Shown: positions 2,399 to 53,229 of the stretch, piece by piece | Numbering within the stretch: the first letter of the stretch is position 1 | How the letters are laid out: each line of letters opens with the position of its first letter | From: an uncultured Klebsiella sp. | Lineage (GTDB): Bacteria; Verrucomicrobiota; Verrucomicrobiia; Limisphaerales; SXTU01 | Length of the DNA: 64,000 nt | Direction of reading: 5' to 3' | NCBI GenBank assembly: GCA_964496695.1 | Contig: CAZCBE010000013.1 | Location: 12,401 to 76,400 of the forward strand | Position numbers and translations under genes: made by a program | Notes under the pieces: model-generated | The model's input: the letters and a program-made list of their open reading frames with translations, nothing else | Told to the model about the DNA's origin: nothing | Database searches by the model: none

Positions 2399-2508
2399 CC
2401 GGCAGCGGCGGAGCGCCGAGCACCCGCCAGCGCAACTGCGCCCGCTCGCATTCTCAGGCAAGAAACCGATTGCCACCTCCCGGTTCCTGAGTGACTTTTC
2501 TTCGCATC

Positions 2509-3276
2509 ATGAAACACATCCTTGCCAGCCTCTGCATCGCCGTCCTGCTCGCGGTGCCCGACGCCCGCGGCCAGAAAGCGGGCGGCGTTTCCGCGATTGG
2601 CACCCAGGCCCCGTTCCTTGCCGCCGCCATGTCGGAATTTTTCAGTGACACCCGGGCGTTCACCGCCGGTGTCGAACTCGCGCTGCCCGCCAAGGATGGG
2701 GCCGAACCGATGAAGCTCCCCTTCGGCGTCGCCATGGCGGATGGTAAAATGCGCTGGGAACTCAACTTCGCCAATGTGAAGAGCGCGGAAATGACCCCCG
2801 AAGCCCTCAACGGCATGAAGGGCATGGGCCTGGACCAGATGTGCTTCATCTATCTGCCCGGCAAACCGCTCACCCTCACGCTCCCCGGCATGAAAGCCTA
2901 TGTCGAGATGCCCGTGCCCAAGGTCGAAGGCGTCCAGCAGCAGGCGCAGGAAAAAATCGGGCGGCTGGAAAAGAAGGAAATTGGCCGCGAGACCATCGCC
3001 GGCCAGCCCACGGTGAAATACGCCGTGAAAGTGCCCGGCGACGACGGCACGGCGACCGTCTGGCAGGCCACGAACCTGCAGAATCTCCCCATCAAGATCC
3101 ACATCACCAAGGATCAGCAGACCTACCAGCTCCAGTTGAGCAACATCCGCCTCGGCCAGCCGGATGCCGCCTACTTCCAGATGCCGCCCGGCTACACGAA
3201 GCAGGCCGACCTCAACGCGGCCATCCAGACGGCCGCGATGCGCTCGTTGGGAGGAATCAGCGGCGGGCTGAAGTAG
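2509..3276 (+). CDS. Secreted protein of unknown function
   Basis: The ORF is open from GTG 2491. The internal ATG at 2509 gives a clean signal peptide, MKHILASLCIAVLLAVPDARGQ. I recognise no catalytic motif. Confidence 0.55.
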   Translation: MKHILASLCIAVLLAVPDARGQKAGGVSAIGTQAPFLAAAMSEFFSDTRAFTAGVELALPAKDGAEPMKLPFGVAMADGKMRWELNFANVKSAEMTPEALNGMKGMGLDQMCFIYLPGKPLTLTLPGMKAYVEMPVPKVEGVQQQAQEKIGRLEKKEIGRETIAGQPTVKYAVKVPGDDGTATVWQATNLQNLPIKIHITKDQQTYQLQLSNIRLGQPDAAYFQMPPGYTKQADLNAAIQTAAMRSLGGISGGLK

Positions 3277-3295
3277 GGTGACGCGGAAAAGCGTT

Positions 3296-3348
3296 GAAAA
3301 GTCGAAGGGTTGAAGAGTCGGGGGTCAAAACCCTGCAACCCTTCAAAA
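3296..3348. repeat. Hairpin of the 'ttgaagggttgaag' family directly after the stop at 3276 (possible terminator)
   Basis: gaagggttgaagagtcgggggtcaaaaccctgcaacccttc: outer arms gaagggttg / caacccttc. Same sequence family as the element at 14124-14210. Confidence 0.5.
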
Positions 3349-9650: not shown

Positions 9651-9748
9651 CAATCCCAACGGGATTGTGTCCTCCAGCCCAAGGTTGCCGAGCTTGCGAG
9701 GTTACCTTGGGTCGCAATTCGGAAATCGATTCAACCGCAACGCGGTTG
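9651..9748. repeat. REP unit (left of RayT)
   Basis: Three consecutive hairpins: caatcccaacgggattg, cccaaggt...accttggg, caaccgcaacgcggttg. Confidence 0.8.
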
Positions 9749-9772
9749 TGGCATTTTCCGCAAGGCGACGAT

Positions 9773-10228
9773 TCAATCCCAAACGTATTTCTCATCCCAC
9801 TCGATCTCGTGCTTGCGCAACAACGCGTGCAACTCGTCCTGAAATCCAATCTTACGGTGATGCTCCTCTTGTCCGGCGATGTATTCCTTGACCTCCGGCA
9901 GCTTCGACTGGCTCACGGAGAAATCCGCATAGCCGCCTTGCCATTCGAAGTCGGCGTAATCGCGACCGCGCTCCTTCAGCCAGAGGTTCGAGACGCGTTT
10001 CAATTCCTTTACCCATTCCGCCTGCGTGATGGTGCGCCCGAAGCGCGCGAGCAGATGCACATGGTCCTCCACGCCGCCGACGAGGAGGGGCGGGCAATCG
10101 AGTTGCTTGGAGACACCGCCGAGATACGCATGGAGCGCGTCGCGCGTGGGTTTGTCGCGCAGGAACGGCCGGCGGTCTTTGGTGGAGAAGACGAGATGAA
10201 TGTAAACGGCGGAAAGGGATTGTGGCAT
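9773..10228 (-). CDS. REP-associated tyrosine transposase (RayT; IS200/IS605-like Y1 HUH transposase)
   Basis: MPQSLSAVYIHLVFSTKDRRPFL...GGVEDHVHLLARF (HUH = HVH)...VKEYIAGQEEHH (catalytic Tyr region). ATG at 10228. Confidence 0.85.
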   Translation of the reverse strand: MPQSLSAVYIHLVFSTKDRRPFLRDKPTRDALHAYLGGVSKQLDCPPLLVGGVEDHVHLLARFGRTITQAEWVKELKRVSNLWLKERGRDYADFEWQGGYADFSVSQSKLPEVKEYIAGQEEHHRKIGFQDELHALLRKHEIEWDEKYVWD

Positions 10229-10298
10229 GTGGGAAGGATGCCAAATCGCGTCGGCGTGTTCCAATCCCAAAGGCGACGTGTCGTCGCGAACCATCGTT

Positions 10299-10526
10299 CA
10301 ATCCCAAAGGGATTGCGTCCACCAGCCCTGGGTTGCGAGGAACGAGCTACCCTGGGAAGTCGGAGGCGGAATTTCACAACCCCAACGGGGTTGCGGCGAA
10401 TTCGCGAGCGATGACGGAAACGGACTGGCCACAACCCCGTTGGGGTTGATGATGATTGGCGGACGGTGCTCCAGGGTAGCTCGCGCCTCGCAACCCTGGG
10501 CTTTGGGACGGAATCCCGTTGGGATT
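10299..10526. repeat. BIME-like inverted pair of REP units (right of RayT)
   Basis: The forward unit 10299-10395 and the inverted unit about 10430-10526 mirror each other (caaccccaacggggttg / caaccccgttggggttg; aatcccaaagggatt / aatcccgttgggatt). Confidence 0.8.
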
Positions 10527-10697
10527 CTTGAGCCGGAGCAGCGCAACTGGCGAGCATGGTGCGTTCAAGCGAACGGAGAGGATGGCAACTATTCCAAGAC
10601 ACTGAATTTCCGAATCGGTGATTCGGAGATCTCCGCGAAGACGGACACTGGCGATTTCCGAGACACTGTCTCGGAAATTCAATGACGCGCCCGCGAA

Positions 10698-10745
10698 CAA
10701 TCCCAACGGGATTGCGCCCTCCAGCCCAAGGTTGGTGCGCCAGCG
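10698..10745. repeat. Truncated REP unit abutting the VOC pseudogene
   Basis: caatcccaacgggattgcgccctccagcccaaggttgg is near-identical to the unit at 9651. Confidence 0.75.
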
Positions 10746-10749
10746 CCTA

Positions 10750-11097
10750 CCGTGCGACTTTCCTCGTGGCAAGGAGGGCGAAATACTCACGGTGGAGTTC
10801 GCCGTCTTCGCCCTTCCGTGCCTGGGTCTCAACGGCGGTCCTGAATTTCCGAAAACCCAAGCCTTCTCCTTCCAAATCGCGACGGACATCCTACTGGAAT
10901 GCGATCGTCAGCAACGGCGGACAGGAAAGCGCGTGCGGCTGGTGCAAAGACCGCTGGGGTATTTCCTGGCAAATCACGCCGCGCGTGTTGATGGACGCGC
11001 TGGCGGCCGGCGGCGCTGAAGCCAAGCGCACCTTCGAAGCGATGATGGAAATGGGCAAGATCACATCGCCAAAATCGAAGCCGCCAGCCACGGCTGA
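10750..11097 (+). pseudogene. Decayed, 5-prime-truncated paralogue of the VOC gene at 9084-9569
   Basis: Nucleotide homology to 9223-9569 starts at ggcaaggagggcgaaat. There is a 17-nt deletion relative to the intact copy at about 10889 (ATDTQEETDRYWNAIV region) and a 1-nt deletion near 11063 (atcgacatc to atcacatc). The reading frame is split across two ORF-track frames (10618.. and 10682..). Confidence 0.85.
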
Positions 11098-11131
11098 AGG
11101 AAACGACGGCGTTGGCTGGACTAACAGCGAA

Positions 11132-13048
11132 TCAAGGTTTCCAATCAGACATAATCTGCTCGAACGCGGCCCAACTTCCAAACAAAGTCGCGTAAATGGG
11201 GCTGTTCACTCGGTAGTTCCTGTCGATTTCAATCTTGGTTGGTTTGCGGCCAAGCCTTCTGGCGAGGCGTTCATATTGGTAGAGCAAGATTCTCCTGATG
11301 TTGTGGCGCGTCGCGTAGGCCGGATCGAGCGTCTGACTAGCGAATACTTCGATAACCCGGTCGTCGAAGGTGACCTCGCATCCTAGCGGCAGATTCAGAA
11401 TCTCTTTTCTGGTTCTCGTGCCACTAGGACCTGCCTGTTCATCCTCTTCAAAGGGAAGAAGTCCCTGATAGTCGAGAATCCTGTGCGCGTTTTTGAAGTT
11501 GCCGATGAAGTCGATGACGGTGCAGTGCGACTTCCCGACATATTTACGCAGTCCACGCCCAAGTTGCTGATAAAAGATTCGCTTCGATTCCGTCGGTCTC
11601 AAAAACAGCAAGCATTCGATGAACGGCAAATCTGCTCCCTCATTCAACACGTCCACAACGCAAAGAATGGGAACAGTCCCATTTTTGAAACTAACCAGCA
11701 TTTGTTGGCGGCTCTGTCTGTCCGTTTCAGACGTGTAAACTGCCGCAGCGATACCTTCCGAATTGAGGCTAGCAGCAACGCGCTCTGCGTGCTTGATGGA
11801 ACAGCAAAAGGCAACCGTCGGCTTTCCTTCGGCTTTCTCACGCCACTTCCGAATTATTCCGCTGTCTCGCTGCGGAACTATGAGCGCCCTTTCGAGATCG
11901 CGAATACTGTAAGCCAGCCCGTTGTGTTTGATTTGGGTGTAATCGATGTCATCAAAACAACCGTAATAGTGGTAAGGGCAGAGAACTCCGGTCTCGATTC
12001 CAAAGCGAAGCTCGTAGCTGACGATGACGTTGTCATTGCACAGCTGAAGAATATCCTGGCGGTCACCCCGAAACGGAGTCGCGGTAAGTCCCAAAAGAAA
12101 ACCCGGTTGAATGCACTCGATGAGTTTCCGATAGGATTTCGCAGCAGCATGATGGAACTCGTCGATTACAACGTAATCAAATTGACCGGCTGACAGTTTC
12201 GCCAAGTTTTCCGCGAGCAGTTTGATAGTCGCGATGTTGATACGATTCAATTGTCGGAATGAAGCCCCTCGCTCCAAGCGCACGACATTATCCGCACCAA
12301 ACTTGGCTTCAAATTCGGACTGAGCCACGTCCAAGATTTCGTGCGTGTGCGCAACGTAAAGAACTCGGGCCGGGTTTAGTGCCTTGGCGTCCTCGGCTGA
12401 GATTCGCGTTTTGCCGCTACCTGGTGGTAATACCACCAACCCAGTCTTTTGTTTCAATGCGTGGGCTGTTGCTAAACCCTCTAACGCTTCCTTCTGTAGC
12501 AAATTCAAAATCCGCTTTGGCGGCGAGTATCCGCATTTGCATCGTCCGGCAGAAACTCGACTCGCGTCGCGCGGGCACAGGAATCCGTGGGCGACGAAGA
12601 GCCGCGCCAAATCCACCACGTCAAAAATCGAATAGCGGCAGCCAATCTCTTCGCAGGTTGTGCAAAACTGCTCTTTCGCCGGGTCGAGGATAGTTCCCGG
12701 TGCGGCGAAGACTGCGAACTTCAAGCCATCGATTTTCTTGAGCCGGTAAATCTGATGTGAAACGTCGGATTGTCGAACAGTTGAGAATGATTTCCCTTTC
12801 AGAATAAAAGCCGCCAAGCCGTGCTGGCCTTTAACCGTGACCCTGTGTGTGAAGATGTCCGCTATTTCCATTGGCCCATGCGGTGTCTCGCCGAAGTCGG
12901 CGAGAATTGAACGAAGGAAAGGCTCTAACTCCTCCCGCTCATCGAGCTTCTTTACCACACGAATGAGTTCAGGCGTGACATCAGAGGCGGAGAAATCCTT
13001 TGCCTCTTTGAAGTTGTCGAATGCTTCAATTGGAATCAGTAAGCTCAT
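11132..13048 (-). CDS. Mrr-like (PD-(D/E)xK) nuclease domain fused to SF2 DExH helicase with C-terminal HEARO-like repeat
   Basis: Helicase motifs: PPGSGKT (I), VIDEFHH (II), GLTATP (III), VDVLNEGADLP (V), QQLGRGLR (VI). The first 170 aa follow a restriction-endonuclease layout (..EIADIF..AAFILKGKS..FAVFAAPG..IFDVVDLARLF). The C-terminus ...YATLFGSWAAFEQ resembles the homing-endonuclease-associated repeat. GC content is visibly lower than in the flanks. Confidence 0.75.
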   Translation of the reverse strand: MSLLIPIEAFDNFKEAKDFSASDVTPELIRVVKKLDEREELEPFLRSILADFGETPHGPMEIADIFTHRVTVKGQHGLAAFILKGKSFSTVRQSDVSHQIYRLKKIDGLKFAVFAAPGTILDPAKEQFCTTCEEIGCRYSIFDVVDLARLFVAHGFLCPRDASRVSAGRCKCGYSPPKRILNLLQKEALEGLATAHALKQKTGLVVLPPGSGKTRISAEDAKALNPARVLYVAHTHEILDVAQSEFEAKFGADNVVRLERGASFRQLNRINIATIKLLAENLAKLSAGQFDYVVIDEFHHAAAKSYRKLIECIQPGFLLGLTATPFRGDRQDILQLCNDNVIVSYELRFGIETGVLCPYHYYGCFDDIDYTQIKHNGLAYSIRDLERALIVPQRDSGIIRKWREKAEGKPTVAFCCSIKHAERVAASLNSEGIAAAVYTSETDRQSRQQMLVSFKNGTVPILCVVDVLNEGADLPFIECLLFLRPTESKRIFYQQLGRGLRKYVGKSHCTVIDFIGNFKNAHRILDYQGLLPFEEDEQAGPSGTRTRKEILNLPLGCEVTFDDRVIEVFASQTLDPAYATRHNIRRILLYQYERLARRLGRKPTKIEIDRNYRVNSPIYATLFGSWAAFEQIMSDWKP

Positions 13049-13090
13049 TCTATTTTTTCGCTTTTAATCTGAGCCTTCTCATGTCGGCTG

Positions 13091-14665
13091 CTACGGGTTG
13101 AAAAGCTTTTCCACCTTCGCCTTCACTGCGGCATCCATTATAATCAGCGGCGGCCAAGGGCGTTTGAAACCCTCACCCGGGATCTTCTTCGTCGCGTCGA
13201 TGCCGAGTTTGCTGCCGCTGGCGATTTCGCTGGTGGCGTGGTCGAGCACGTCGGACGGGCCTTTGGTGAAGATGCTGTCGCGTTGCGGGTCGGTGTTGGC
13301 GCAGAGGCGGAAGAGGACTTCGCTGGTGTTGTGCACGTCCACGTCGTCGTCCACCACGATGATGTATTTGGTGAACATCATCTGGCCCATGCCCCAGAGG
13401 CCGTGCATGATTTTGTAGGCTTGCATCGGGTAGGTCTTGCGGATGCTCACGAAGACGAGGTTGTGGAAGACGCCTTCGGCCGGCAACGCGATATCCACGA
13501 TCTCGGGGAAGTTCATCTTGAAGATGGGCAGGAAGAGTTTCACGGACGCGCCGCCGATGTAGAAGTCCTCCATCGGCGGGATGCCGACGATGGTGGCGGG
13601 ATAGACGGCGTCTTTGCGGTGCGTGATGGCAGTGACGTGGAAGACAGGATACGGCTCGGGCAAGGTGTAATAGCCGGTGTGATCGCCGAACGGGCCTTCG
13701 TCGCGCAGCGGCTCCTTGGGGTCAATGTAGCCCTCGATGACGAAGTCGGAATTCGCCGGCACCTCCAGGTCGTTGGTCTCGCACTTCACCAGCTCCACGG
13801 ACTTCTTGCGCAGGTAGCCCGCGAGCAAGAACTCATCCAGTCCATCCGGCAGCGGCGCGGTGGCGGCGAAGGGATACATGGGATCGCCGCCGAGGAAGAT
13901 CGCGACGGGCATGCGCTCGCCGCGCTCGTAATAACGACGGCCATGGCGCGCGGCCACCTTCTGGAGCTGCCAGTGCATGCCCGTGGTGCGGTCGTCGTAG
14001 ATCTGCACGCGATACATGCCGAGGTTGCGATCGTCCGTGTCGGGATCGCGCGTGACGACGCAGGGCAGCGTGATGAAGCGACCGCCGTCGAGGGGCCAGC
14101 AGTTGAGGATGGGGAGGTTGAGAAGAGTTGAAGGGTTGAAGGGTTGAAGGGTTGAAGGGGGTTCGCTGCCGGCACCCCCTTTAACTTTTGAACCTTTAAA
14201 CTCTTCAACTGACGGCGCGGCCGGCCACGCTTCTGTGCGCGTCGGCGGGGAATCGAACTTATGGATGACTTCCTTGCACGGACCGTCCTTGACCAGCTTG
14301 GGCTTGGCGTGACGGAGGTCAATGGCGAGCGAGAGCAGCTTCATCGCCTCGCGCATCGAGGTGGGCGGCTTGGCCTTCATCAGCGCGCCGAGTTCGGCGG
14401 CGACCTCGTCCACGGAGCCCGCTCCCATGCTCATGGCCATGCGCTTGTGCGAGCCAAGGGTGTTGATGGCGACGGGGAAGGGAGAGACGACGCCATTGAC
14501 GGTGGGCTGCTCGATGAGCAGGGCCTTGCCGCCGCCGGGCTTCTTCATCTCGCGGTCGGCCAGCTCGGTGATTTCCAGTTCGGTGGCCAGGGGCTGGCGG
14601 ATGCGGGTCAGCTCCCCTGCCCTGTCGAGCGCCTGCACCCATTCCCGGAAGGAGTCAAATGCCAT
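13091..14665 (-). CDS. UbiD-family (prenylated-FMN dependent) decarboxylase
   Basis: MAFDSFREWVQALDRAGELTRI..., LPILNCWPLDGGRFITLP, GMYRVQI, EGPFGDHTGYY are UbiD hallmarks. The gene carries an in-frame palindromic insert (see 14124-14210). Confidence 0.85.
   Translation of the reverse strand: MAFDSFREWVQALDRAGELTRIRQPLATELEITELADREMKKPGGGKALLIEQPTVNGVVSPFPVAINTLGSHKRMAMSMGAGSVDEVAAELGALMKAKPPTSMREAMKLLSLAIDLRHAKPKLVKDGPCKEVIHKFDSPPTRTEAWPAAPSVEEFKGSKVKGGAGSEPPSTLQPFNPSTLLNLPILNCWPLDGGRFITLPCVVTRDPDTDDRNLGMYRVQIYDDRTTGMHWQLQKVAARHGRRYYERGERMPVAIFLGGDPMYPFAATAPLPDGLDEFLLAGYLRKKSVELVKCETNDLEVPANSDFVIEGYIDPKEPLRDEGPFGDHTGYYTLPEPYPVFHVTAITHRKDAVYPATIVGIPPMEDFYIGGASVKLFLPIFKMNFPEIVDIALPAEGVFHNLVFVSIRKTYPMQAYKIMHGLWGMGQMMFTKYIIVVDDDVDVHNTSEVLFRLCANTDPQRDSIFTKGPSDVLDHATSEIASGSKLGIDATKKIPGEGFKRPWPPLIIMDAAVKAKVEKLFNP
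14124..14210. repeat. 87-bp palindromic element embedded in frame in the UbiD-family CDS
   Basis: The left arm is agagttgaagggttgaagggttgaagggttgaaggggg and the loop is ttcgctgccggca. The right arm is ccccctttaacttttgaacctttaaactcttcaact. The element encodes VEEFKGSKVKGGAGSEPPSTLQPFNPSTL on the minus strand. Confidence 0.75.
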
Positions 14666-14784
14666 GCCGCGAGGCTAGCAGGCGGTGGCCGGGATGCAAT
14701 TCAGTCGGGACGTGGGACGTGGTGCGTGAATAACAAGACCAGCGCGGACGGGTTCACGCACCACGCACCACGCGCCACGCTGCT

Positions 14785-16438: not shown

Positions 16439-16579
16439 GGGCTACGGACTTCGCTGGAGTTGATGCCCCACGCGTTCTGAACCACGGCGGGCCATGGCAT
16501 GGTCAGCGGCCTGACGGCACCATTGAAGCTGCCTCGGCTACCGCCGCCATCGCTTGCCCTCGACGGCGACAAGTCGCCT

Positions 16580-16622
16580 GCGGAAAGCGGTGACAAGTCA
16601 CCGCACTCCAAAACGCCCTGGG
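16580..16622. repeat. Solo copy of the 'caccgcactccaaa' repeat family
   Basis: gcggaaagcggtgacaagtcaccgcactccaaaacgccctggg is related to the inverted pair at 48247-48389. Confidence 0.55.
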
Positions 16623-16720
16623 CCTCCGCCTCACAAAGGCTTGGGTCCCGCATTCGGTGCTTATCCCTCGGAACTCAGTCGGACTTGGGCTTTTCGCCGT
16701 CCTCGGTTAAGGTCAGGCCG

Positions 16721-18496
16721 ATGGCCGACGAACCCAAACCCGCGCCCACGCTGGCGGAGGAATTCCTCGTGGAGTTCCGCGCCTTCTGGGCCTGGCTGCC
16801 GGAGAAGCCGCTGTTCTTCACGCTGCTCGGCGCGTGGGCGGCGCTCTTTCATTTCCTCGGCCACTGCTCGTTCAACTTCACGCAGCAGCCCTCGCTCTTC
16901 GCGTGGATGTGGGGGGCATGGAGCGCACCGGCCCTGGAGGCGGAGCACGGCAAGCTCGTGCCCGTGGTGGTGCTGGTGCTGCTCTGGCTGCGGCACAAGG
17001 AACTGATGGCCACCCCGACCCGGCGCTGGCTGCCCGCGCTGGCCGGGCTGGCTGCAGCGCTCGTCATCCATGTCATCGGGTTCACCGTGCAGCAGCCGCG
17101 CGTCTCCATGGTGGCGCTCGCGGGCGGAGTCTGGTGCCTGGTGGGGCTGGTGTGGGGACCGGGCTGGCTGCGGAAGACGTTTTTCCCATTTCTGCTGCTG
17201 GGCTTTTGCGTGCCCCTTGAGGCACTGGGCGAGGGCGTGTTGTTCCAACTGCGCCTGCTGGTGACCAAAATCTCCGTTGGCATCGGCCACTCCCTGCTGG
17301 GCATGGACGTGGTGCGCGATGGCACGCGCATCTTCAACTCGACCGGAACGTTCAACTACGACGTGGCCCCGGCGTGCAGCGGCATCCGCAGCCTCGCATC
17401 CCTGCTGGCCGTGACGACGATCTATGGCTACGTGACGTTCCGCACGCCGTGGAAGCGCGCCGCGATGATTGCGCTGGCCGCGCCGCTGGCGGTGGCGGGC
17501 AACGTGGCGCGCATCACCACGGTGATCATCCTGGCGGAGGCGTTCGGGCACAAAGCCGGCGCAGCGGCGGAGACGAATCTGGGGTATGTGACCTTCGGCG
17601 TGGCCATCGGGCTGATGTTCCTCGCGGGGTGGCTGCTGCGGGAGAAGACCGCTCCGGCAGGGCGAGACTCTGTCGAGCCCCATTCCGAGCGCCGCGAGGC
17701 GAGCGGAGCGAGCATCTCTGCTTCGGAGGCCGGCCAAGATGCTCGCTTCGCTCGCGCCGACTCCGTCGGCAAATGGGGTTCGACGGAGTCTCACCCTACC
17801 GGGGCGTTGATCGGTGCTCCGCTGATCGCTGCGTTGCTGCTCATGGCGGCTGCGGGCGGTGTGATTTACAAGCTCCAGGCCCGTCAGACACTGGGCCGGG
17901 CCGGCGTGATCGCGGAGCCGCAGGAAGGCTCGCAACGCTGGCGGATTCCCTTGCCTGAGCAGGTGGCTGGCATGACCTCAAAGGAGGTGCCACCAGTCGA
18001 AGAGGAGCTGACCGGCCTGCCCCCGGACACTTCCTTTGGCAAGCGACTCTACACGGCGGCGGACGGCTCGCCGCTCCTGCTGCAGGTCGTGCTCATGGGC
18101 CGTGACCGCACGAGCATCCATCAGCCACAATACTGTCTCACCGGCCAGGGCTGGCTCATCGAGCAGACCGAAGAGGTGCGCCTGCCGGTGGCCAAGCCGC
18201 AGCCCCGCGAGTTGCCCGCGCTCAAGCTCACCGCGAGCAAGGTCATCACGCTTAACAACGGCCAGCGGGTGCCGGTGCGCGCGATCTACGTGTATTGGTT
18301 CGTGGCCGACGGCGCGATCACCGCGCACCGCTCCGAGCGGCTCACCGCAATGGCGAAGGAACTGTTGCGCACCGGCACGCTGCAACGCTGGGCCTACGTG
18401 GCGTGCTTTGCGCAGTGCCTGCCCGGGGATGAGGACAAAACTTTCGCGCGCGTGAAGGAGTTTGTGGCCGAGGCGGTGCCGGAGTTTCAGCCGTGA
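16721..18496 (+). CDS. Exosortase fused to an EpsI-family domain
   Basis: Polytopic N-terminal half with the exosortase Cys motif DVAPACSGIRSL and NVARITTV. The C-terminal half is EpsI-like (SIHQPQYCLTGQGW...AIYVYWFVADG). ATG 16721 (MADEPKP...); the upstream part of the ORF lies over repeats. Confidence 0.8.
   Translation: MADEPKPAPTLAEEFLVEFRAFWAWLPEKPLFFTLLGAWAALFHFLGHCSFNFTQQPSLFAWMWGAWSAPALEAEHGKLVPVVVLVLLWLRHKELMATPTRRWLPALAGLAAALVIHVIGFTVQQPRVSMVALAGGVWCLVGLVWGPGWLRKTFFPFLLLGFCVPLEALGEGVLFQLRLLVTKISVGIGHSLLGMDVVRDGTRIFNSTGTFNYDVAPACSGIRSLASLLAVTTIYGYVTFRTPWKRAAMIALAAPLAVAGNVARITTVIILAEAFGHKAGAAAETNLGYVTFGVAIGLMFLAGWLLREKTAPAGRDSVEPHSERREASGASISASEAGQDARFARADSVGKWGSTESHPTGALIGAPLIAALLLMAAAGGVIYKLQARQTLGRAGVIAEPQEGSQRWRIPLPEQVAGMTSKEVPPVEEELTGLPPDTSFGKRLYTAADGSPLLLQVVLMGRDRTSIHQPQYCLTGQGWLIEQTEEVRLPVAKPQPRELPALKLTASKVITLNNGQRVPVRAIYVYWFVADGAITAHRSERLTAMAKELLRTGTLQRWAYVACFAQCLPGDEDKTFARVKEFVAEAVPEFQP
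17657..17799. repeat. ~143-bp palindromic element embedded in frame at the exosortase/EpsI junction
   Basis: The arm gcagggcgagactctgtcgagccccatt...gcgagcggagcgagcatc has a reverse-complement partner. That partner is gatgctcgcttcgctcgc...aaatggggttcgacggagtctcaccctac. Confidence 0.75.
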
Positions 18497-25006: not shown

Positions 25007-26215
25007 TTATTGCTTTCCTTTCCGGGCCTTCCGCCGGGGCTGGTTCAATTCCCGCTCGATGTCCGCAATCGTGGGCAGCGCGCCGCGCAGCTTCCTGGGC
25101 AGCGACTCCACGAGCCGCGTCTGCCACTCGGCCACGCCGATGGGTTTCTTCACGTCGCGCAGCGCATACTCCACCTTCACCCGGTTCTTCGCGTCCCGGC
25201 ACAGCAGCAGGCCGATGGTGGGAGCATCGTCCTTATGCCGCATCTGGTCATCCACGGCAGAGAGGTAGTAGTTCATCTTGCCCACAAATTCCGGCTCGAA
25301 CGCCCGCATCTTCAAATCCACGACTACAAAACAGCGCAGCCGCAATTGGTAGAACAGCAAATCGAGGCGCGAATCATCGCCGCCCACTCCGATGGAAACC
25401 TGCCGCCCCACGAACGCGAACCCCGCGCCCAGTTCCAGCAGCAGCCTCTGCACATTATCCACGAGCAGGCGCTCCAGATCGCGCTCCTGTGCCGCCTCGC
25501 CCAGCGTGAGGAAATCGAACGTGTAAGGGTCCTTCAACACCTCGCGCGCCAGGTCCGACTGCGCGGGCGGCAGCGTGCGATCAAAGTTCGTAATGGCCTT
25601 CCCGCTGCGCTCATGCAGCCGTGACTCGATTTGCACCGTGAGGACCGCGCGGCTCCAGCCGTGCTCCAAAGTTTTGCGGGCATACCAGAGGCGCGTGGCG
25701 GGGTGCTTTACCTTTTCAATGAGCAAAATGTTTGTGCCCCACGGGAGCAACGCCAGCGGCTCCGGAGGCCCGTCCAATCGAGTCGCAGGCGGTGATGCAA
25801 ATTGTGCAACAGGCCGTTGCAGAATTTCCTTCCGAGATTTTGCCACAGCCTGTGGCGCAATTGGCCCAGTCAATTTTGCCACAGCCTGTGGCAAAATGTC
25901 GGTGATGGCATAGGCCTCGGCGAAAGTCCGCATCCGATTCAGATTCCGTGAGGAAAACCCATCCATTGCCGGGAACTCCCTCGCCAGATCTTTCGCCAAC
26001 CGCTCCACCACTCTCGTGCCCCAGCCCTCCGCCTTCTGCGCCCGTAAAATCTCCCGCCCGATGTGCCAGTAGAGCAGGACCAGTTCGCGGTTCACCGACA
26101 TCGCCGCCTTCACCTGTGTCGCTCGAACACGGGCTTTCAAGTCGGCAAGGAACGGGGCGTAGCCGGCAGGCACGAGCTTCATGGCTTGGGCTGGTTTGGG
26201 CTTCACTTTGGGCAT
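25007..26215 (-). CDS. DUF1016 / YhcG-family PD-(D/E)xK nuclease-domain protein
   Basis: C-terminal core FAFVGRQVSIGVGGDDSRLDLLFYQLRLRCFVVVDLKMRAFEPEFVGKMNYY (D...D/ExK layout). The N-terminal helical region includes ...PWGTNILLIEKV. Confidence 0.75.
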   Translation of the reverse strand: MPKVKPKPAQAMKLVPAGYAPFLADLKARVRATQVKAAMSVNRELVLLYWHIGREILRAQKAEGWGTRVVERLAKDLAREFPAMDGFSSRNLNRMRTFAEAYAITDILPQAVAKLTGPIAPQAVAKSRKEILQRPVAQFASPPATRLDGPPEPLALLPWGTNILLIEKVKHPATRLWYARKTLEHGWSRAVLTVQIESRLHERSGKAITNFDRTLPPAQSDLAREVLKDPYTFDFLTLGEAAQERDLERLLVDNVQRLLLELGAGFAFVGRQVSIGVGGDDSRLDLLFYQLRLRCFVVVDLKMRAFEPEFVGKMNYYLSAVDDQMRHKDDAPTIGLLLCRDAKNRVKVEYALRDVKKPIGVAEWQTRLVESLPRKLRGALPTIADIERELNQPRRKARKGKQ

Positions 26216-30597: not shown

Positions 30598-30633
30598 GGA
30601 AGGGGATGGGGTCTGGCGTCTGGGGGATGGGGT

Positions 30634-30996
30634 TCAGTTTCGGTCGCCTTGGGAGCGGATGAGGCCGCTGATGAGTTTGCCGGTCTGGATGCAGAGGGAA
30701 AGCAGGTGCTCTTGCTCGGGCAGGGTTACGAATTTGTTATCGAGCAGGACGTAGCTCATGGAACGGACTTCACCACACGAACGGCGGGCGTAGTTGTAAG
30801 CCTGGCGCTTCTCGGCGAGATGCAGGGATTCCCAGCCTTCGGCGAGGTTGTTCATCACGGATACTGCGGCACGCTGAAGCTGGTCGCGCAGGCCAAAGTC
30901 CCTCGCCAGCGGTTCGCGGCGGCAAAGGGAATAGACTTGGTTGGTCAGCACACGCGCTGACTTCCACGCTTCCGAATTTTCAAACGGTTCGCCCAT
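30634..30996 (-). CDS. Four-helix-bundle protein (23S rRNA intervening-sequence protein / Avd-like family)
   Basis: 120 aa. AWKSARVLTNQVYSL...QLQRAAVSVMNNLAEGW...YNYARRSCGEVRS is the characteristic pattern. Confidence 0.8.
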   Translation of the reverse strand: MGEPFENSEAWKSARVLTNQVYSLCRREPLARDFGLRDQLQRAAVSVMNNLAEGWESLHLAEKRQAYNYARRSCGEVRSMSYVLLDNKFVTLPEQEHLLSLCIQTGKLISGLIRSQGDRN

Positions 30997-31076
30997 GTGT
31001 TATGGGGTCTAGGGTCTGGGATTTTGGGTCTTGGGCTTCGGCTCACGGAGGCATCTGGCTTCCCAGACGCCAGACG

Positions 31077-31751
31077 CTAGACCCCATCCCCCTTGGCGAC
31101 TGCTTTTCCGCCCCAGGCCGCATGGAGACCGCACTCACGCTTCTCATCCGCCTTTGCAGGGTCGAAGTAGTCCCATTCGTTCGGAAGGTTGTGCTGTTTC
31201 AGATAGGCTTCCATCTCGGCGTCGGACCAGTGGAAGACGGGGCTGACTTTGAGGGAGTTGAAGTTGCCGTCGGGGCTGACGATGTCCAGGCCGGCGCGGT
31301 TGGGGTTCTGGACTTTGCGGAGCGCGGTGAGCCAGACGGTGGGGGCGAGTTCCCTCATGCCGCGCTGGAAGGGCTCCAGCTTCATCACAGTGCTGAAGGC
31401 CTTGATGCGCTCCTCGTTCTCCGGCGTCGGCTCGGGCATGCCGCCGTGGACGGCGTCGTAGTGGGCGGCGGTGAGCCGGGGCAAGTAGGCCTTGATGTTG
31501 AGCTTTAGCTGGGCCTTGAGCGCCTCGGCGTGCAGGTAGGTGGCGGGGCGGTTGTAACCGTGGTCCACCCAGAGCACCGGGATGTCCGGCTGCACCTGCG
31601 TAACGAGGTGGAGGATGACGGCCTCGTAGGGGCGATAGTTCGTCGAGACGATGGCGCGGCCACCGGCCTGGGCGATGGCCCACTTCACGACGTCGAGGGC
31701 GGATTTGTTCCTAAGTTCGGCGTTGGCTTGGGTGATTTGGTCGGGGGTCAT
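31077..31751 (-). CDS. cysH: Phosphoadenylyl-sulfate (PAPS/APS) reductase
   Basis: MTPDQITQANAELRNKSALDVVKWAI..., C-terminal ECGLH motif (KRECGLHAAW). ATG at 31751; the track ORF opens at TTG 31766. Confidence 0.85.
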   Translation of the reverse strand: MTPDQITQANAELRNKSALDVVKWAIAQAGGRAIVSTNYRPYEAVILHLVTQVQPDIPVLWVDHGYNRPATYLHAEALKAQLKLNIKAYLPRLTAAHYDAVHGGMPEPTPENEERIKAFSTVMKLEPFQRGMRELAPTVWLTALRKVQNPNRAGLDIVSPDGNFNSLKVSPVFHWSDAEMEAYLKQHNLPNEWDYFDPAKADEKRECGLHAAWGGKAVAKGDGV

Positions 31752-38080: not shown

Positions 38081-38181
38081 GCGTGAAGTCTGTTGCGCGG
38101 TCCGCCCGATGCGTCGGTCGAGCCGCGAGGGGGCATCTTTCGGAATCCACCGGCTGGCAGCAAGGCAAAGAATTGCGTGTC

Positions 38182-38340
38182 GAAATTCCAAATCCCAAGC
38201 TTCAAATCCCAAACAAGTTCCAAACCCCAAATTTCAAAGGCTGCTGCCGGAAACGGAACCAAAGCTCCGGGCCGGCTTGGGCTTGGAATTTGGAACTTGG
38301 AGCTTCTTTGAGATTTGGAGTTTGGGATTTGGGGATTTCC
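38182..38340. repeat. Loose palindrome built of ccaaat/atttgg units between the PQQ-propeller gene and purM
   Basis: gaaattccaaatcccaagcttcaaatcccaaac...ccaaatttcaaagg faces ...ggaatttggaacttggag...gatttggagtttgggatttggggatttcc. Confidence 0.6.
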
Positions 38341-42739: not shown

Positions 42740-42757
42740 TTCGGGGGGGCAAATGCT

Positions 42758-42845
42758 GGAGCAGGATTAGGATCAGGATTACGAGCAGGAACTGCAACGC
42801 GGGGCATTCTGCTCGTAATCCTGATCCTGATCCTAATCCTGCTCC
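42758..42845 (+). terminator. Long hairpin of aggat(c/t) hexamer repeats just after the glnD stop
   Basis: ggagcaggattaggatcaggattacgagcag (42758-42788) pairs with ctgctcgtaatcctgatcctgatcctaatcctgctcc (42809-42845). The loop is about 20 nt and there is no clear T-tract. Confidence 0.5.
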
Positions 42846-48246: not shown

Positions 48247-48389
48247 GAAGTCGCGAAAGCGGCTGGAGTGCGGTGTCTTTCAGCACCGCTCTTTCCCGTG
48301 CAAGGTGAGTGGTGAACTTGCAGCCGTTTTGTGCGCCTAACCGAAAGCGGCGGTGAAACACGCCGCACTCCAGACGCTCGCGCGACTTC
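48247..48389. repeat. Inverted pair of the 'caccgcactccag' repeat family
   Basis: gaagtcgcgaaagcggctggagtgcggtgtctttcagcaccgctctttcc is the reverse complement of ccgaaagcggcggtgaaacacgccgcactccagacgctcgcgcgacttc. Confidence 0.7.
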
Positions 48390-53045: not shown

Positions 53046-53229
53046 CCCGGAGGGTTTCCAGGTGAATAGCCGTGGGTGAAACCCATGGGGAGCGGTTTGC
53101 TGGCTCGACCCTGAAAGGGTCGAACTCGCTCATCGGCTGGCGTTGCGTTCAACCCCTCCCGGGGTTGTGCCTCTGGACTCGCTCACCGTGGGTTTCACCC
53201 ACGGCTATTCAGGTGACACCCCTCCGGGG
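53046..53229. mobile_element. 184-bp MITE-like element with ~43-bp terminal inverted repeats
   Basis: The left TIR is cccggagggtttccaggtgaatagccgtgggtgaaacccatgg. The right TIR is ccgtgggtttcacccacggctattcaggtgacacccctccgggg. Internal hairpins are gaccctgaaagggtc and caacccctcccggggttg. Confidence 0.75.

Follow-up and report, generated by a model that had tools for sequence, protein, structure and literature searches.

A hairpin-forming tandem-repeat cassette in a hypervariable loop of a Limisphaerales UbiD-family decarboxylase

The 64-kb stretch of DNA analysed here (the window; contig CAZCBE010000013.1 of assembly GCA_964496695.1, positions 12,401 to 76,400) comes from an uncultured member of the Limisphaerales (Verrucomicrobiota) and encodes a UbiD-family decarboxylase of the futalosine-type menaquinone pathway. 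The reading frame of this ubiD gene contains a palindromic cassette of 29 codons, and the same site is occupied by many unrelated cassettes in its close orthologues. Taken together, our analyses suggest that the palindrome is probably tolerated repeat DNA within a permissive, fast-turnover surface loop specific to this clade, and that a function is not needed to explain the data. A preliminary description, made from the sequence alone, had viewed the element as an 87-bp repeat inserted into a conserved protein and exapted there. Neither part of this view was sustained. The simple-insertion reading is wrong because the loop itself is repeat-derived and hypervariable, the element being one of its alleles; the C-rich arm corresponds in unit, phase and position to an array that most orthologues carry. 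In addition, nothing indicates a function, and relatives among the closest lack the element.

The cassette and its host gene

Scans for open reading frames (ORFs), repeats and folds covered the whole window, and the features discussed below are collected in Table 1. The host ORF scored 577.8 bits against the menaquinone biosynthesis decarboxylase model TIGR03701 (cut-off 495.9) and matched the Pfam domains UbiD_N, UbiD and UbiD_C (PF20695, PF01977, PF20696). An AlphaFold 2 (AF2) model built from an alignment of diverse representatives reached a mean predicted local distance difference test (pLDDT) score of 91.8 and a predicted template modelling score of 0.89; with close relatives alone (identity of 83% or more), the pLDDT was 41. 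In Foldseek, the AF2 model matched Escherichia coli UbiD (5m1d/2idb) with template modelling scores of 0.81-0.90. Thus, the curated score, the three domains and the fold all place the product in the UbiD family, as had been proposed for the host gene, and in TIGR03701.

Table 1 Features of the ubiD locus and related elements (window coordinates unless a locus is named)
Feature	Position	Strand	Content or basis
UbiD-family menaquinone (futalosine-pathway type) biosynthesis decarboxylase, 524 aa	13091-14665	-	ORF, TIGR03701, Pfam, fold
Clade-specific hypervariable loop, residues 136-181	14123-14260	-	KFDSPPTRTEAWPAAPS + cassette; alignments, clustering, AF2
In-frame palindromic cassette, 87 nt	14124-14210	-	encodes V153-L181 (codons 14209-14123)
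mRNA 5' arm, degenerate, G-rich	14174-14210	-	units GTTGAAGA GTTTAAAG GTTCAAAA GTTAAAGG; encodes VEEFKGSKVKGG
Spacer (apical loop) between arms	14163-14173	-	inverted-repeat and fold analysis
mRNA 3' arm, near-perfect tandem array	14126-14162	-	(CCCTTCAA) x 4.8; encodes PPSTLQPFNPSTL
Intergenic GTTGAAG-unit hairpin	3289-3348		~15 nt 3' of stop codon of ORF 2491-3276 (+)
FtsX-type permease ORF	L109:4546-7998	-	at least three repeat-derived in-frame segments
Y1/IS200-like transposase ORF	9773-10294	-	PF01797, E 2e-19; IS200 equivalog 48.7, below cut-off 55
148-nt nested palindrome in exosortase-EpsI fusion	17655-17802	+	inside ORF 16499-18496; -107 kcal/mol, z -11
Two copies of palindrome TTTTGCCACAGCCTGTGGCAAAAT	25832-25902	-	inside ORF 25007-26215 (YhcG/DUF1016 nuclease-like)

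The element is an inverted repeat with two 37-nt arms, 81% complementary to each other, around an 11-nt spacer. On the plus strand, its left arm consists of 4.8 tandem copies of the 8-nt unit GAAGGGTT (96% matches), and all four occurrences of GTTGAAGGG in the whole window, where 0.47 would be expected, lie inside the element. The plus strand folds with -59.4 kcal/mol (z -6.1) and the minus strand, which is the mRNA sense, with -38.6 kcal/mol (z -4.2); here and below, energies and z-scores refer to a comparison with shuffled sequences. The inverted repeat, the tandem array and the better-than-shuffle folds together confirm that the palindrome is real. The arms had been described as repeats of gttgaaggg around a 13-nt loop; that unit is the same octamer array read with a one-base overlap and stands, whereas the spacer is 11 nt. 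Likewise, the 29 in-frame codons do encode VEEFKGSKVKGGAGSEPPSTLQPFNPSTL (residues 153-181), followed by LNLPILNCWPLDGGRF, but they run from 14209 to 14123, one base away from the 14124-14210 first given for them. The residues directly after V153-L181 are LNLPILNCWPLDGG, and VKGGAGSEPPSTLQPFNPSTLLNLPILNCWPLDGGR is an example of a tryptic peptide that spans the loop. The cassette boundaries are those of the segment swapped in L203/P0002, the closest relative without the hairpin.

The cassette is located at a site where the protein departs from the rest of its family. The alignment with E. coli UbiD breaks at the element, where residues 136-180 stand in place of six residues. In a wider comparison (one representative per 50% cluster, drawn from ~15 billion proteins), nearly all relatives aligned from query residue ~181 to their own residue ~135-145, and the gap from PCQEVV to DLxxLPxLKCWP was 5-8 residues in the 49 diverse members aligned and 45 in the window protein. 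The alignment of orthologues proposed earlier thus shows a segment that is extra relative to the UbiD family. The Limisphaerales/Pedosphaera-like clade has an extension of ~22-25 residues here (HKFDxP.....WPxAPDW....PTLLNLP), to which the window protein adds 15-17 more; within the Limisphaerales, the loop is hypervariable and 20-60 residues long.

The AF2 model has a single low-confidence stretch, residues 141-180; the core has pLDDT above 90. The means of its consecutive 10-residue blocks are 55, 64, 48 and 70, with residues 160-167 below 50, and the stretch is coil except for residues 153-158, which form a short helix. The prediction for the cassette is therefore a disordered excursion at the junction ahead of the prenylated-FMN-binding domain, in agreement with the surface-loop location suggested at first. 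It is very unlikely that the 29 residues are a functional protein insertion (serving as a flexible linker, in contact with a membrane or partner, or in regulation) to which the palindrome is incidental. The position of the loop at a domain junction, the retention of some extension by nearly all clade members and the charged K/E-rich stretch produced by the altered codons would fit such a role; however, neither the sequence nor the length of the loop is conserved even among near-identical enzymes, the structure is predicted to be disordered, and the peptide is the direct translation of a repeat that is also present in intergenic DNA.

Palindromes and tandem repeats are prone to misassembly, but that the element is an assembly artefact or a chimera is hardly credible. 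All of the sampled 31-mers of region 13600-14700 (100%) are present in three independent metagenome runs of one bioreactor study, the ORF is intact, and the AF2 model folds around the loop. In addition, a separately assembled sister genome (GCA_964578245.1, of which L200, the ubiD locus, and L109 are contigs) has the same structure, with the same ubiD hairpin at 92-94% DNA identity across the region and an identical 3' arm. The organism was not found in RNA runs, which contained at most 5% of its words. The record of the sister assembly is entitled 'uncultured Klebsiella sp.'; its genes are 92-98% identical to those of the verrucomicrobial window, and thus the title looks like a mislabel.

Several established kinds of element were considered and rejected. 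A miniature inverted-repeat transposable element requires terminal inverted repeats and a target-site duplication; here the inverted repeat is the entire element, and the cassette flanks (..CCGTCA and TCTTCTC..) have no common direct repeat of 3 nt or more, so no target-site duplication is seen. An intrinsic terminator requires a GC-rich stem with a T-run, and nothing terminator-like was found on either strand at 14120-14215, nor was there a promoter pattern at the hairpin. Rfam 15 gave no match at the gathering score, the best being sno_ZL63 at a chance level (22 bits vs 50, E 0.22). Two properties of the cassette DNA may be noted in their own right. On the plus strand, which is the ubiD template, (GGGTTGAA)4 at 14126-14162 fits G3N5G3N5G3N5G3 and is a potential G-quadruplex; G3 runs also occur in other arrays (GGGTCTT, GGGACGT, TTTGGGA), and the G runs of the mRNA-sense arm are interrupted. 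In frame +3 relative to ubiD, the reverse-complement translation of 14127-14210 is 50% identical over 28 aa to the forward one (tblastn), a likeness described as 'palindromic coding' for palindromic amphipathic repeat coding elements (PARCEL) and Rickettsia palindromic elements (RPEs).

Hypervariability of the loop among orthologues

The Limisphaerales orthologue set comprised 120 proteins (83-98% identical) and 80 metagenome loci, of which 199 sequences were pooled for the clustering of cassettes. Among the 120 proteins, the whole stretch from WPxAP to TLLNLP differs in both sequence and length. The pooled sequences fell into 61 unrelated cassette clusters of 4-43 residues, and orthologues without the palindrome carry non-conserved segments of this kind rather than an equivalent conserved one. 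Unrelated cassettes were found in 379 of the 764 pairs with less than 6% divergence outside the cassette. Four relatives of the window protein illustrate this pattern: at 2.1% divergence outside the loop, P0001 has the same hairpin; at 3.8%, P0002 has the cassette QIPDARPHPLSSS; at 4.6%, P0005 has a different hairpin, ITDSLVTDYSGKSSQYSVTSNQ; and at 5.3%, P0009 has DWQKGTSPTPP. Similarly, L120 and L122 are 2.3% divergent, yet their entire loops differ. The narrow GTTGAA-type hairpin, present in 22 of the 199 sequences, needs ~13 gains or losses on a neighbour-joining tree of the masked proteins. The turnover or exchange of cassettes, whether by in-situ replacement or by recombination, thus appears from these comparisons to be fast.

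Three kinds of cassette recur at the site: (a) 7-nt tandem arrays, with units such as CCTTCAA, CCCTCGA, CCAGACG, AATCGGC and GTCATTC; (b) hairpins with such arrays as arms; and (c) dimers of GTAG-headed repetitive extragenic palindromic (REP) sequences, for example GTAGGACAGGCGTCCCGCCTGTC..., GTAGCGGCGGTCTGTGACCGCC... and GGTAGGGCGCGCTGTCCCC..., in loci L127, L129, L135, L148, L158, L159 and others. The 3' arm of the window element matches, in unit, phase and position, the (CCTTCAA)n or (CCCTCGA)n array of most orthologues. In many orthologues, a partner arm lies further upstream of WPxAP and encodes LVESSKLKVES ((GTTGAAA)n) or FDESRESRVES ((CGAGAGT)n). The resulting 'wide' hairpins, with the conserved WPKAPDW encoded in their loops (L133, L141, L151 and L157; z -6 to -9), suggest that the whole clade-specific loop is repeat-derived, and the 'narrow' hairpin of the window is nested within its downstream half. 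Over the 563 kb of the window and the orthologue loci, we counted 123 arrays of period 6-9, with period 7 the commonest; 49 have an inverted partner.

These observations are consistent with the following course of events. The element is hairpin-forming repeat DNA of a REP-like kind, with arms built of GTTGAAGG and CCTTCAAC in short tandem arrays, and the loop site, between the N-terminal region and the prenyl-FMN-binding domain, would be structurally unconstrained. In the Limisphaerales, the loop may act as an intergenic spacer embedded in a gene, gaining and exchanging sequences of an intergenic type (heptamer or octamer arrays, array-armed hairpins and GTAG-headed REP dimers), with an open reading frame as the only visible constraint. 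In the lineage of the window, the common C-rich array beside TLLNLP would have become the 3' arm, and an inverted G-rich copy together with a new loop, ~45 nt or 15 codons, would have been added upstream of it. The G-rich copy may be the product of a local inverted duplication (template switching), or it may have been copied from a family member located elsewhere. The 29 residues would then be passengers in a disordered loop, around which the enzyme is likely to be made, to fold and presumably to work.

We also considered whether the loop is a targeted hot spot, at which some mechanism would repeatedly place REP dimers and hairpins with tandem hepta- or octamer arms in the same 100-nt stretch and swap them among strains 2-5% divergent. 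This is a possibility, albeit a doubtful one, with two candidate mechanisms: ssDNA-hairpin-directed insertion by a Y1 transposase, or template-switch 'palindrome growth' from the array beside TLLNLP. If the hot spot were targeted, an unrecognised insertion or template-switch mechanism would be at work, and the tandem-repeat-armed hairpins would constitute an undescribed REP-like class in Verrucomicrobia, with units evolving in concert within and between arms.

In practice, the 29 residues, like the rest of the 136-181 loop, are best regarded as disordered filler of repeat origin and should be masked in alignments, phylogenies and homology models; left unmasked, the loop can generate spurious 'domains', split hidden Markov model hits and misleading identity values. 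The locus also amounts to a natural experiment, in which one essential gene carries at least 61 repeat-derived cassettes among ~200 close orthologues, some with a stop codon repaired by selection. It bears on the origin, spread and removal of hairpin and tandem repeats in Verrucomicrobia, and on how much secondary structure a translated mRNA tolerates (up to ~-80 kcal/mol in some orthologues).

Reading frame and strand asymmetry

The octamer GTTGAAGG contains TGA, and an 8-nt unit cycles through the three frames; thus, every third unit of a perfect G-rich arm would be an in-frame stop. In the frame of the window gene, the stop-prone unit is the third, and its TGA has become TCA through a G-to-C change; the G-rich arm also carries G-to-A changes. 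The same G is altered in most of the type-A hairpins of the orthologues (GTTCAA in six) and in L109 (GTTTAAGA), while the C-rich arm and the arrays are open in all frames and are always on the sense strand. This stop avoidance is direct evidence, as read from the DNA, that the gene is likely to be translated through the element, and it follows that a perfect hairpin is insertable only with at least one accompanying change. All of the ~200 orthologous genes compared read through the loop in frame.

Simple-sequence contingency loci occur within ORFs of Neisseria and Haemophilus, and the window gene resembles them in having a tandem unit not divisible by three within its coding sequence. That it is a phase-variable locus, in which slippage of the 8-nt repeat shifts the frame and turns the enzyme off and on, is nonetheless highly improbable. 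A 4.8-copy octamer array does lie inside the coding sequence, but the array is short, the gene encodes a central, housekeeping enzyme of quinone biosynthesis, the orthologues are uniformly in frame, and there is no evidence of on/off variants.

The two strands of the type-A hairpins differ in stability. In the mRNA sense, A.C mismatches break the stem, 0-4 G.U pairs are formed, and the folds range from -26 to -44 kcal/mol; in the antisense, pairing is nearly continuous, 4-9 G.U pairs are formed, and the energies lie between -38 and -60 kcal/mol. The antisense strand was better by 11-23 kcal/mol (5-9 G.U pairs) in eight of the nine type-A hairpins examined, the exception being L207, with four G.U pairs on each strand and -44.5 (sense) vs -43.9 kcal/mol (antisense). 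Arrays without any hairpin likewise fold better on the G+T-rich antisense strand, and the loop site also accommodates GTAG-REP cassettes whose sense stems have -56 to -83 kcal/mol. Because of these two facts, the case for an antisense function or for selection on translatability is weakened, and a weakening of the mRNA hairpin for the sake of translatability was set aside as the cause of the A.C mismatches. We regard the strand asymmetry as mostly a consequence of the stop-prone G-rich arm changing by transitions.

Selection on the hairpin as a nucleic-acid structure (for mRNA stability, for a translation pause between domains, or as a DNA or antisense-RNA signal), with the peptide as a by-product, is an alternative to tolerance. 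A number of observations point in this direction and weigh against tolerance alone. A significant hairpin (z <= -3 against shuffles on one strand) was found in 33 of the 84 orthologous loci surveyed (39%), in two architectures and with unrelated sequences, and this recurrence could reflect selection for structure; the wide hairpins of L133, L151 and L157 place a conserved motif in their loops. The two arms change in concert, octamer positions 7-8 co-varying in both between sub-groups (GG/CC vs TC/GA). The spacer loop and 3' arm (60 nt) show no differences between the window and its sister genome, in a gene 6% divergent. Furthermore, certain substitutions in the arm replace a codon by a rare synonym (TTA for TTG, AAA for AAG), the G + C content at third codon positions (GC3) of the genome being ~0.85; these substitutions leave the asymmetry partly unexplained. 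The antisense strand also folds better in every type-A hairpin examined but L207. On the other hand, ~60% of the orthologues have no significant hairpin, including the relative at 3.8% divergence; the antisense advantage, being shared by arrays that form no hairpin, is partly compositional; and the very stable sense stems tolerated at this site in other orthologues imply that there is no consistent stability optimum. The negative Rfam, terminator and promoter scans also speak against a selected structure, and no plus-strand gene at the site needs a signal. On balance, we consider selection for the structure to be unlikely, and tolerated repeat DNA in a permissive loop remains our preferred explanation.

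The repeat family, related elements and neighbouring palindromes

A 17-mer search of the window, allowing up to three mismatches, gave seven hits against 0.15 expected, all in two loci: 14126-14210 and the intergenic hairpin at 3289-3348, which is shorter and weaker (-27 kcal/mol, z -2.7/-3.4). The intergenic relative that had been pointed out earlier therefore exists, and the family extends beyond the window. On contig L109 of the sister assembly (CAZOCL010000106.1), a (GTTGAAGG)n hairpin lies in the ORF of an FtsX-type permease, in the same reading frame, and encodes VEGLKGLRVEEASPSTFQPFNPST. Besides the hairpin, this permease has repeat-derived segments of the GGEGQGEG type and SAIGNRQSAIE, the latter encoded by an (AATCGGC)n array; both also appear as repeat peptides of the UbiD loop in other orthologues. 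A scan for the 17-mer GTTGAAGGGTTGAAGGG, with one genome per species, found at least 119 loci (counts being lower bounds), some of them coincidental coding matches and others plain arrays. Among the matches listed, (GTTGAAGGG)n-loop-(CCCTTCAAC)n hairpins occur on multiple contigs of several verrucomicrobial metagenome-assembled genomes (MAGs). The breadth of these matches across phyla was rejected as a sign of one mobile family, as it includes coincidences such as NPFNPST, a motif of the C-terminal sorting domain of the Bacteroidota type IX secretion system. A protein search with the repeat translation, which has low sensitivity for low-complexity queries, gave 13 weak matches to short spurious ORFs of Moorena.

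The copies found comprise two loci in the window, one more on another contig of the sister assembly and, as a lower bound, several in some Verrucomicrobia MAGs. Intergenic hairpin members sit directly after stop codons. The apical feature GTTAAAGAGG, adjoining the loop, is common to the intergenic and UbiD copies; the apical loops themselves differ among the (GTTGAAGG)n hairpins, which are thus not copies of one conserved mobile unit. The window also shares repeats with another allele of the UbiD loop, since the cassette DNA of P0002/L203 (CAGATCCCAGACGCCAGACCCCATCCCC) matches its intergenic repeats 30598-30632 and 31061-31091. Copies of GGGGATGGGGTCTGGCGTCTGGG, which is also the UbiD loop cassette of the close relative L203, flank a TIGR02436 four-helix-bundle gene (30634-30996, minus strand) at 30598-30632 and at 31000-31020/31061-31091. 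Five intergenic hairpins of the window have tandem 6-8-nt arms: 3289-3348, 14707-14780, 30993-31096, 38180-38338 and 42755-42845, with the units GTTGAAR, GGGACGT/CACGCAC, GGGTCTN/CCAGACG, CTTGGAA/TTTGGGA and GGATYA, respectively. Each lies directly 3' of a stop codon, between genes of the same direction, and no obvious T-run follows any of the five in the stretch scanned.

The comparison with REP sequences raises the question of whether the element is a classical REP or REPIN inserted as a unit by a REP-associated tyrosine transposase (RAYT). At a distance of 3 kb there is a Y1/IS200-like transposase gene, which adjoins ubiD in the sister genome too; the loop site of other orthologues contains GTAG-headed REP dimers of the true kind; and the position of the intergenic relatives directly 3' of stop codons is REP-like (PMC3733652). 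However, two defining features of this class are absent, namely the GTAG/CGTC head and a cognate Y1 transposase flanked by the element. The arms begin with AGTTGAAG, contain neither GTAG nor CGTC anywhere and are built of tandem octamers, and the transposase is flanked by a different REP, CAAYCCCAACGGGRTTG (six nearby copies), rather than by GTTGAAGG hairpins. Moreover, the loops vary between copies, the edges of the cassette show no target-site duplication, and a perfect copy would bring an in-frame TGA. RAYT-mediated insertion is thus distinctly unlikely, and we retain tolerated repeat DNA as the better account.

Short palindromes that lie otherwise 3' of ORFs, sometimes wholly inside them, and then add 20-30 residues are known from intragenic GTAG/CGTC REPs, and the window element resembles these, within the same phylum; intragenic GTAG REPs are most numerous in Opitutus terrae, of the Verrucomicrobia (Di Nocera et al. 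2013, PMC3733652). Such REPs occupy the same site in orthologues of this ubiD gene, and also lie in the exosortase gene of the window. Unlike them, the window element is untagged and has tandem-octamer arms, and the local Y1 transposase is flanked by another REP. With REPINs, the hairpin-forming REP doublets which in Pseudomonas constitute the mobile unit (Bertels and Rainey 2011, PMC3116915), the element shares hairpin-forming inverted pairs of short repeats, dispersal in the genome and a single-copy Y1 transposase nearby; unlike REPINs, the (GTTGAAGG) hairpins have neither a demonstrated cognate RAYT nor a population of near-identical copies.

RPEs, reportedly described by Ogata and colleagues in 2000, are said to lie in frame in many unrelated genes. 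They form families of 100-150 bp with conserved sequence, occupy surface positions compatible with the fold and encode a peptide without known function. The window element is similar in being a palindromic repeat of 29 codons, in frame in an intact ORF and missing from near relatives, at a surface location that according to the AF2 prediction spares the fold (low confidence at 141-180 only), with no known function for its peptide and with the same family in frame in an unrelated gene, the L109 permease. Unlike RPEs, the window-type hairpins have low-complexity tandem arms and idiosyncratic loops, and the site turns over among many unrelated cassettes. Phylum and composition also differ from those of RPE-1 to RPE-8; the likeness is one of a class that works alike. 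Rickettsia RPEs are mentioned in PMC3733652 and PMC1779305.

The short tandemly repeated repetitive (STRR) sequences of cyanobacteria consist of short, scattered arrays of 7-nt units, and a single genome has several unit sequences. The arrays described here are similarly dispersed and most often of period 7, and (GTTGAAGG)n occurs in spurious ORFs of Moorena; unlike STRR sequences, they belong to another phylum, have other units, and are often paired as inverted arms, in frame. The term STRR occurs in PMC4748335 and PMC2670836. What is already known, then, is the in-frame palindromic repeat as such, and what differs here is the untagged anatomy with tandem hepta- or octamer arms and the many unrelated cassettes at one site. 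The preliminary description had called the case unusual, which is an overstatement, as in-frame REP/RPE insertions are documented (PMC3733652) and the window itself contains at least one more.

This further case is the nested palindrome in the exosortase-EpsI fusion gene. It encodes, in frame, residues 386-435 (PAGRDSVEPHSE...WGSTESHPTG), within the segment that links the exosortase domain (PF09721, 132-380) to the EpsI/DUF3485 domain (468-664), and a GTAG-headed REP (reverse complement GGTAGGGTGAGACTCCGTCGAACCCCAT) makes up its outer arms.

In the vicinity of ubiD, the transposase gene is flanked on both sides by the six CAAYCCCAACGGGRTTG copies together with a larger palindrome (10600-10684), and 9651-10714 looks like a REPtron; the transposase and ubiD are also syntenic in the sister genome. 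What adjoins ubiD at its 3' end varies from locus to locus (window 10527-13101; L200 2200-3419; L122, L131, L142, L152 and L166). In the window, this place is taken by a ResIII/helicase gene (11132-13048) of low GC3 that has an HNH repeat, and in the sister genome by an AlbA_2 fragment and a 253-aa ORF. In several orthologous loci, the final 35-50 codons of UbiD are present again 0.1-0.8 kb downstream, which is a signature of gene-end integration; a duplicated UbiD 3' fragment was searched for in the window and not found.

The two longest inverted repeats of the window, 53046-53228 (49-nt arms, 85 nt apart) and 48247-48389 (44-nt arms, 55 nt apart), are apparently non-coding, with sequences unrelated to the other families. 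Finally, the paired palindromes in the YhcG/DUF1016-like gene form an in-frame hairpin of -45 kcal/mol (z -6.5) that encodes TDILPQAVAKLTGPIAPQAVAKSR, and the DUF1016_N match of this ORF spans 178 residues against a 137-position profile. This may be the third case of a repeat inserted in frame or, alternatively, a PVAQ motif that was duplicated locally.

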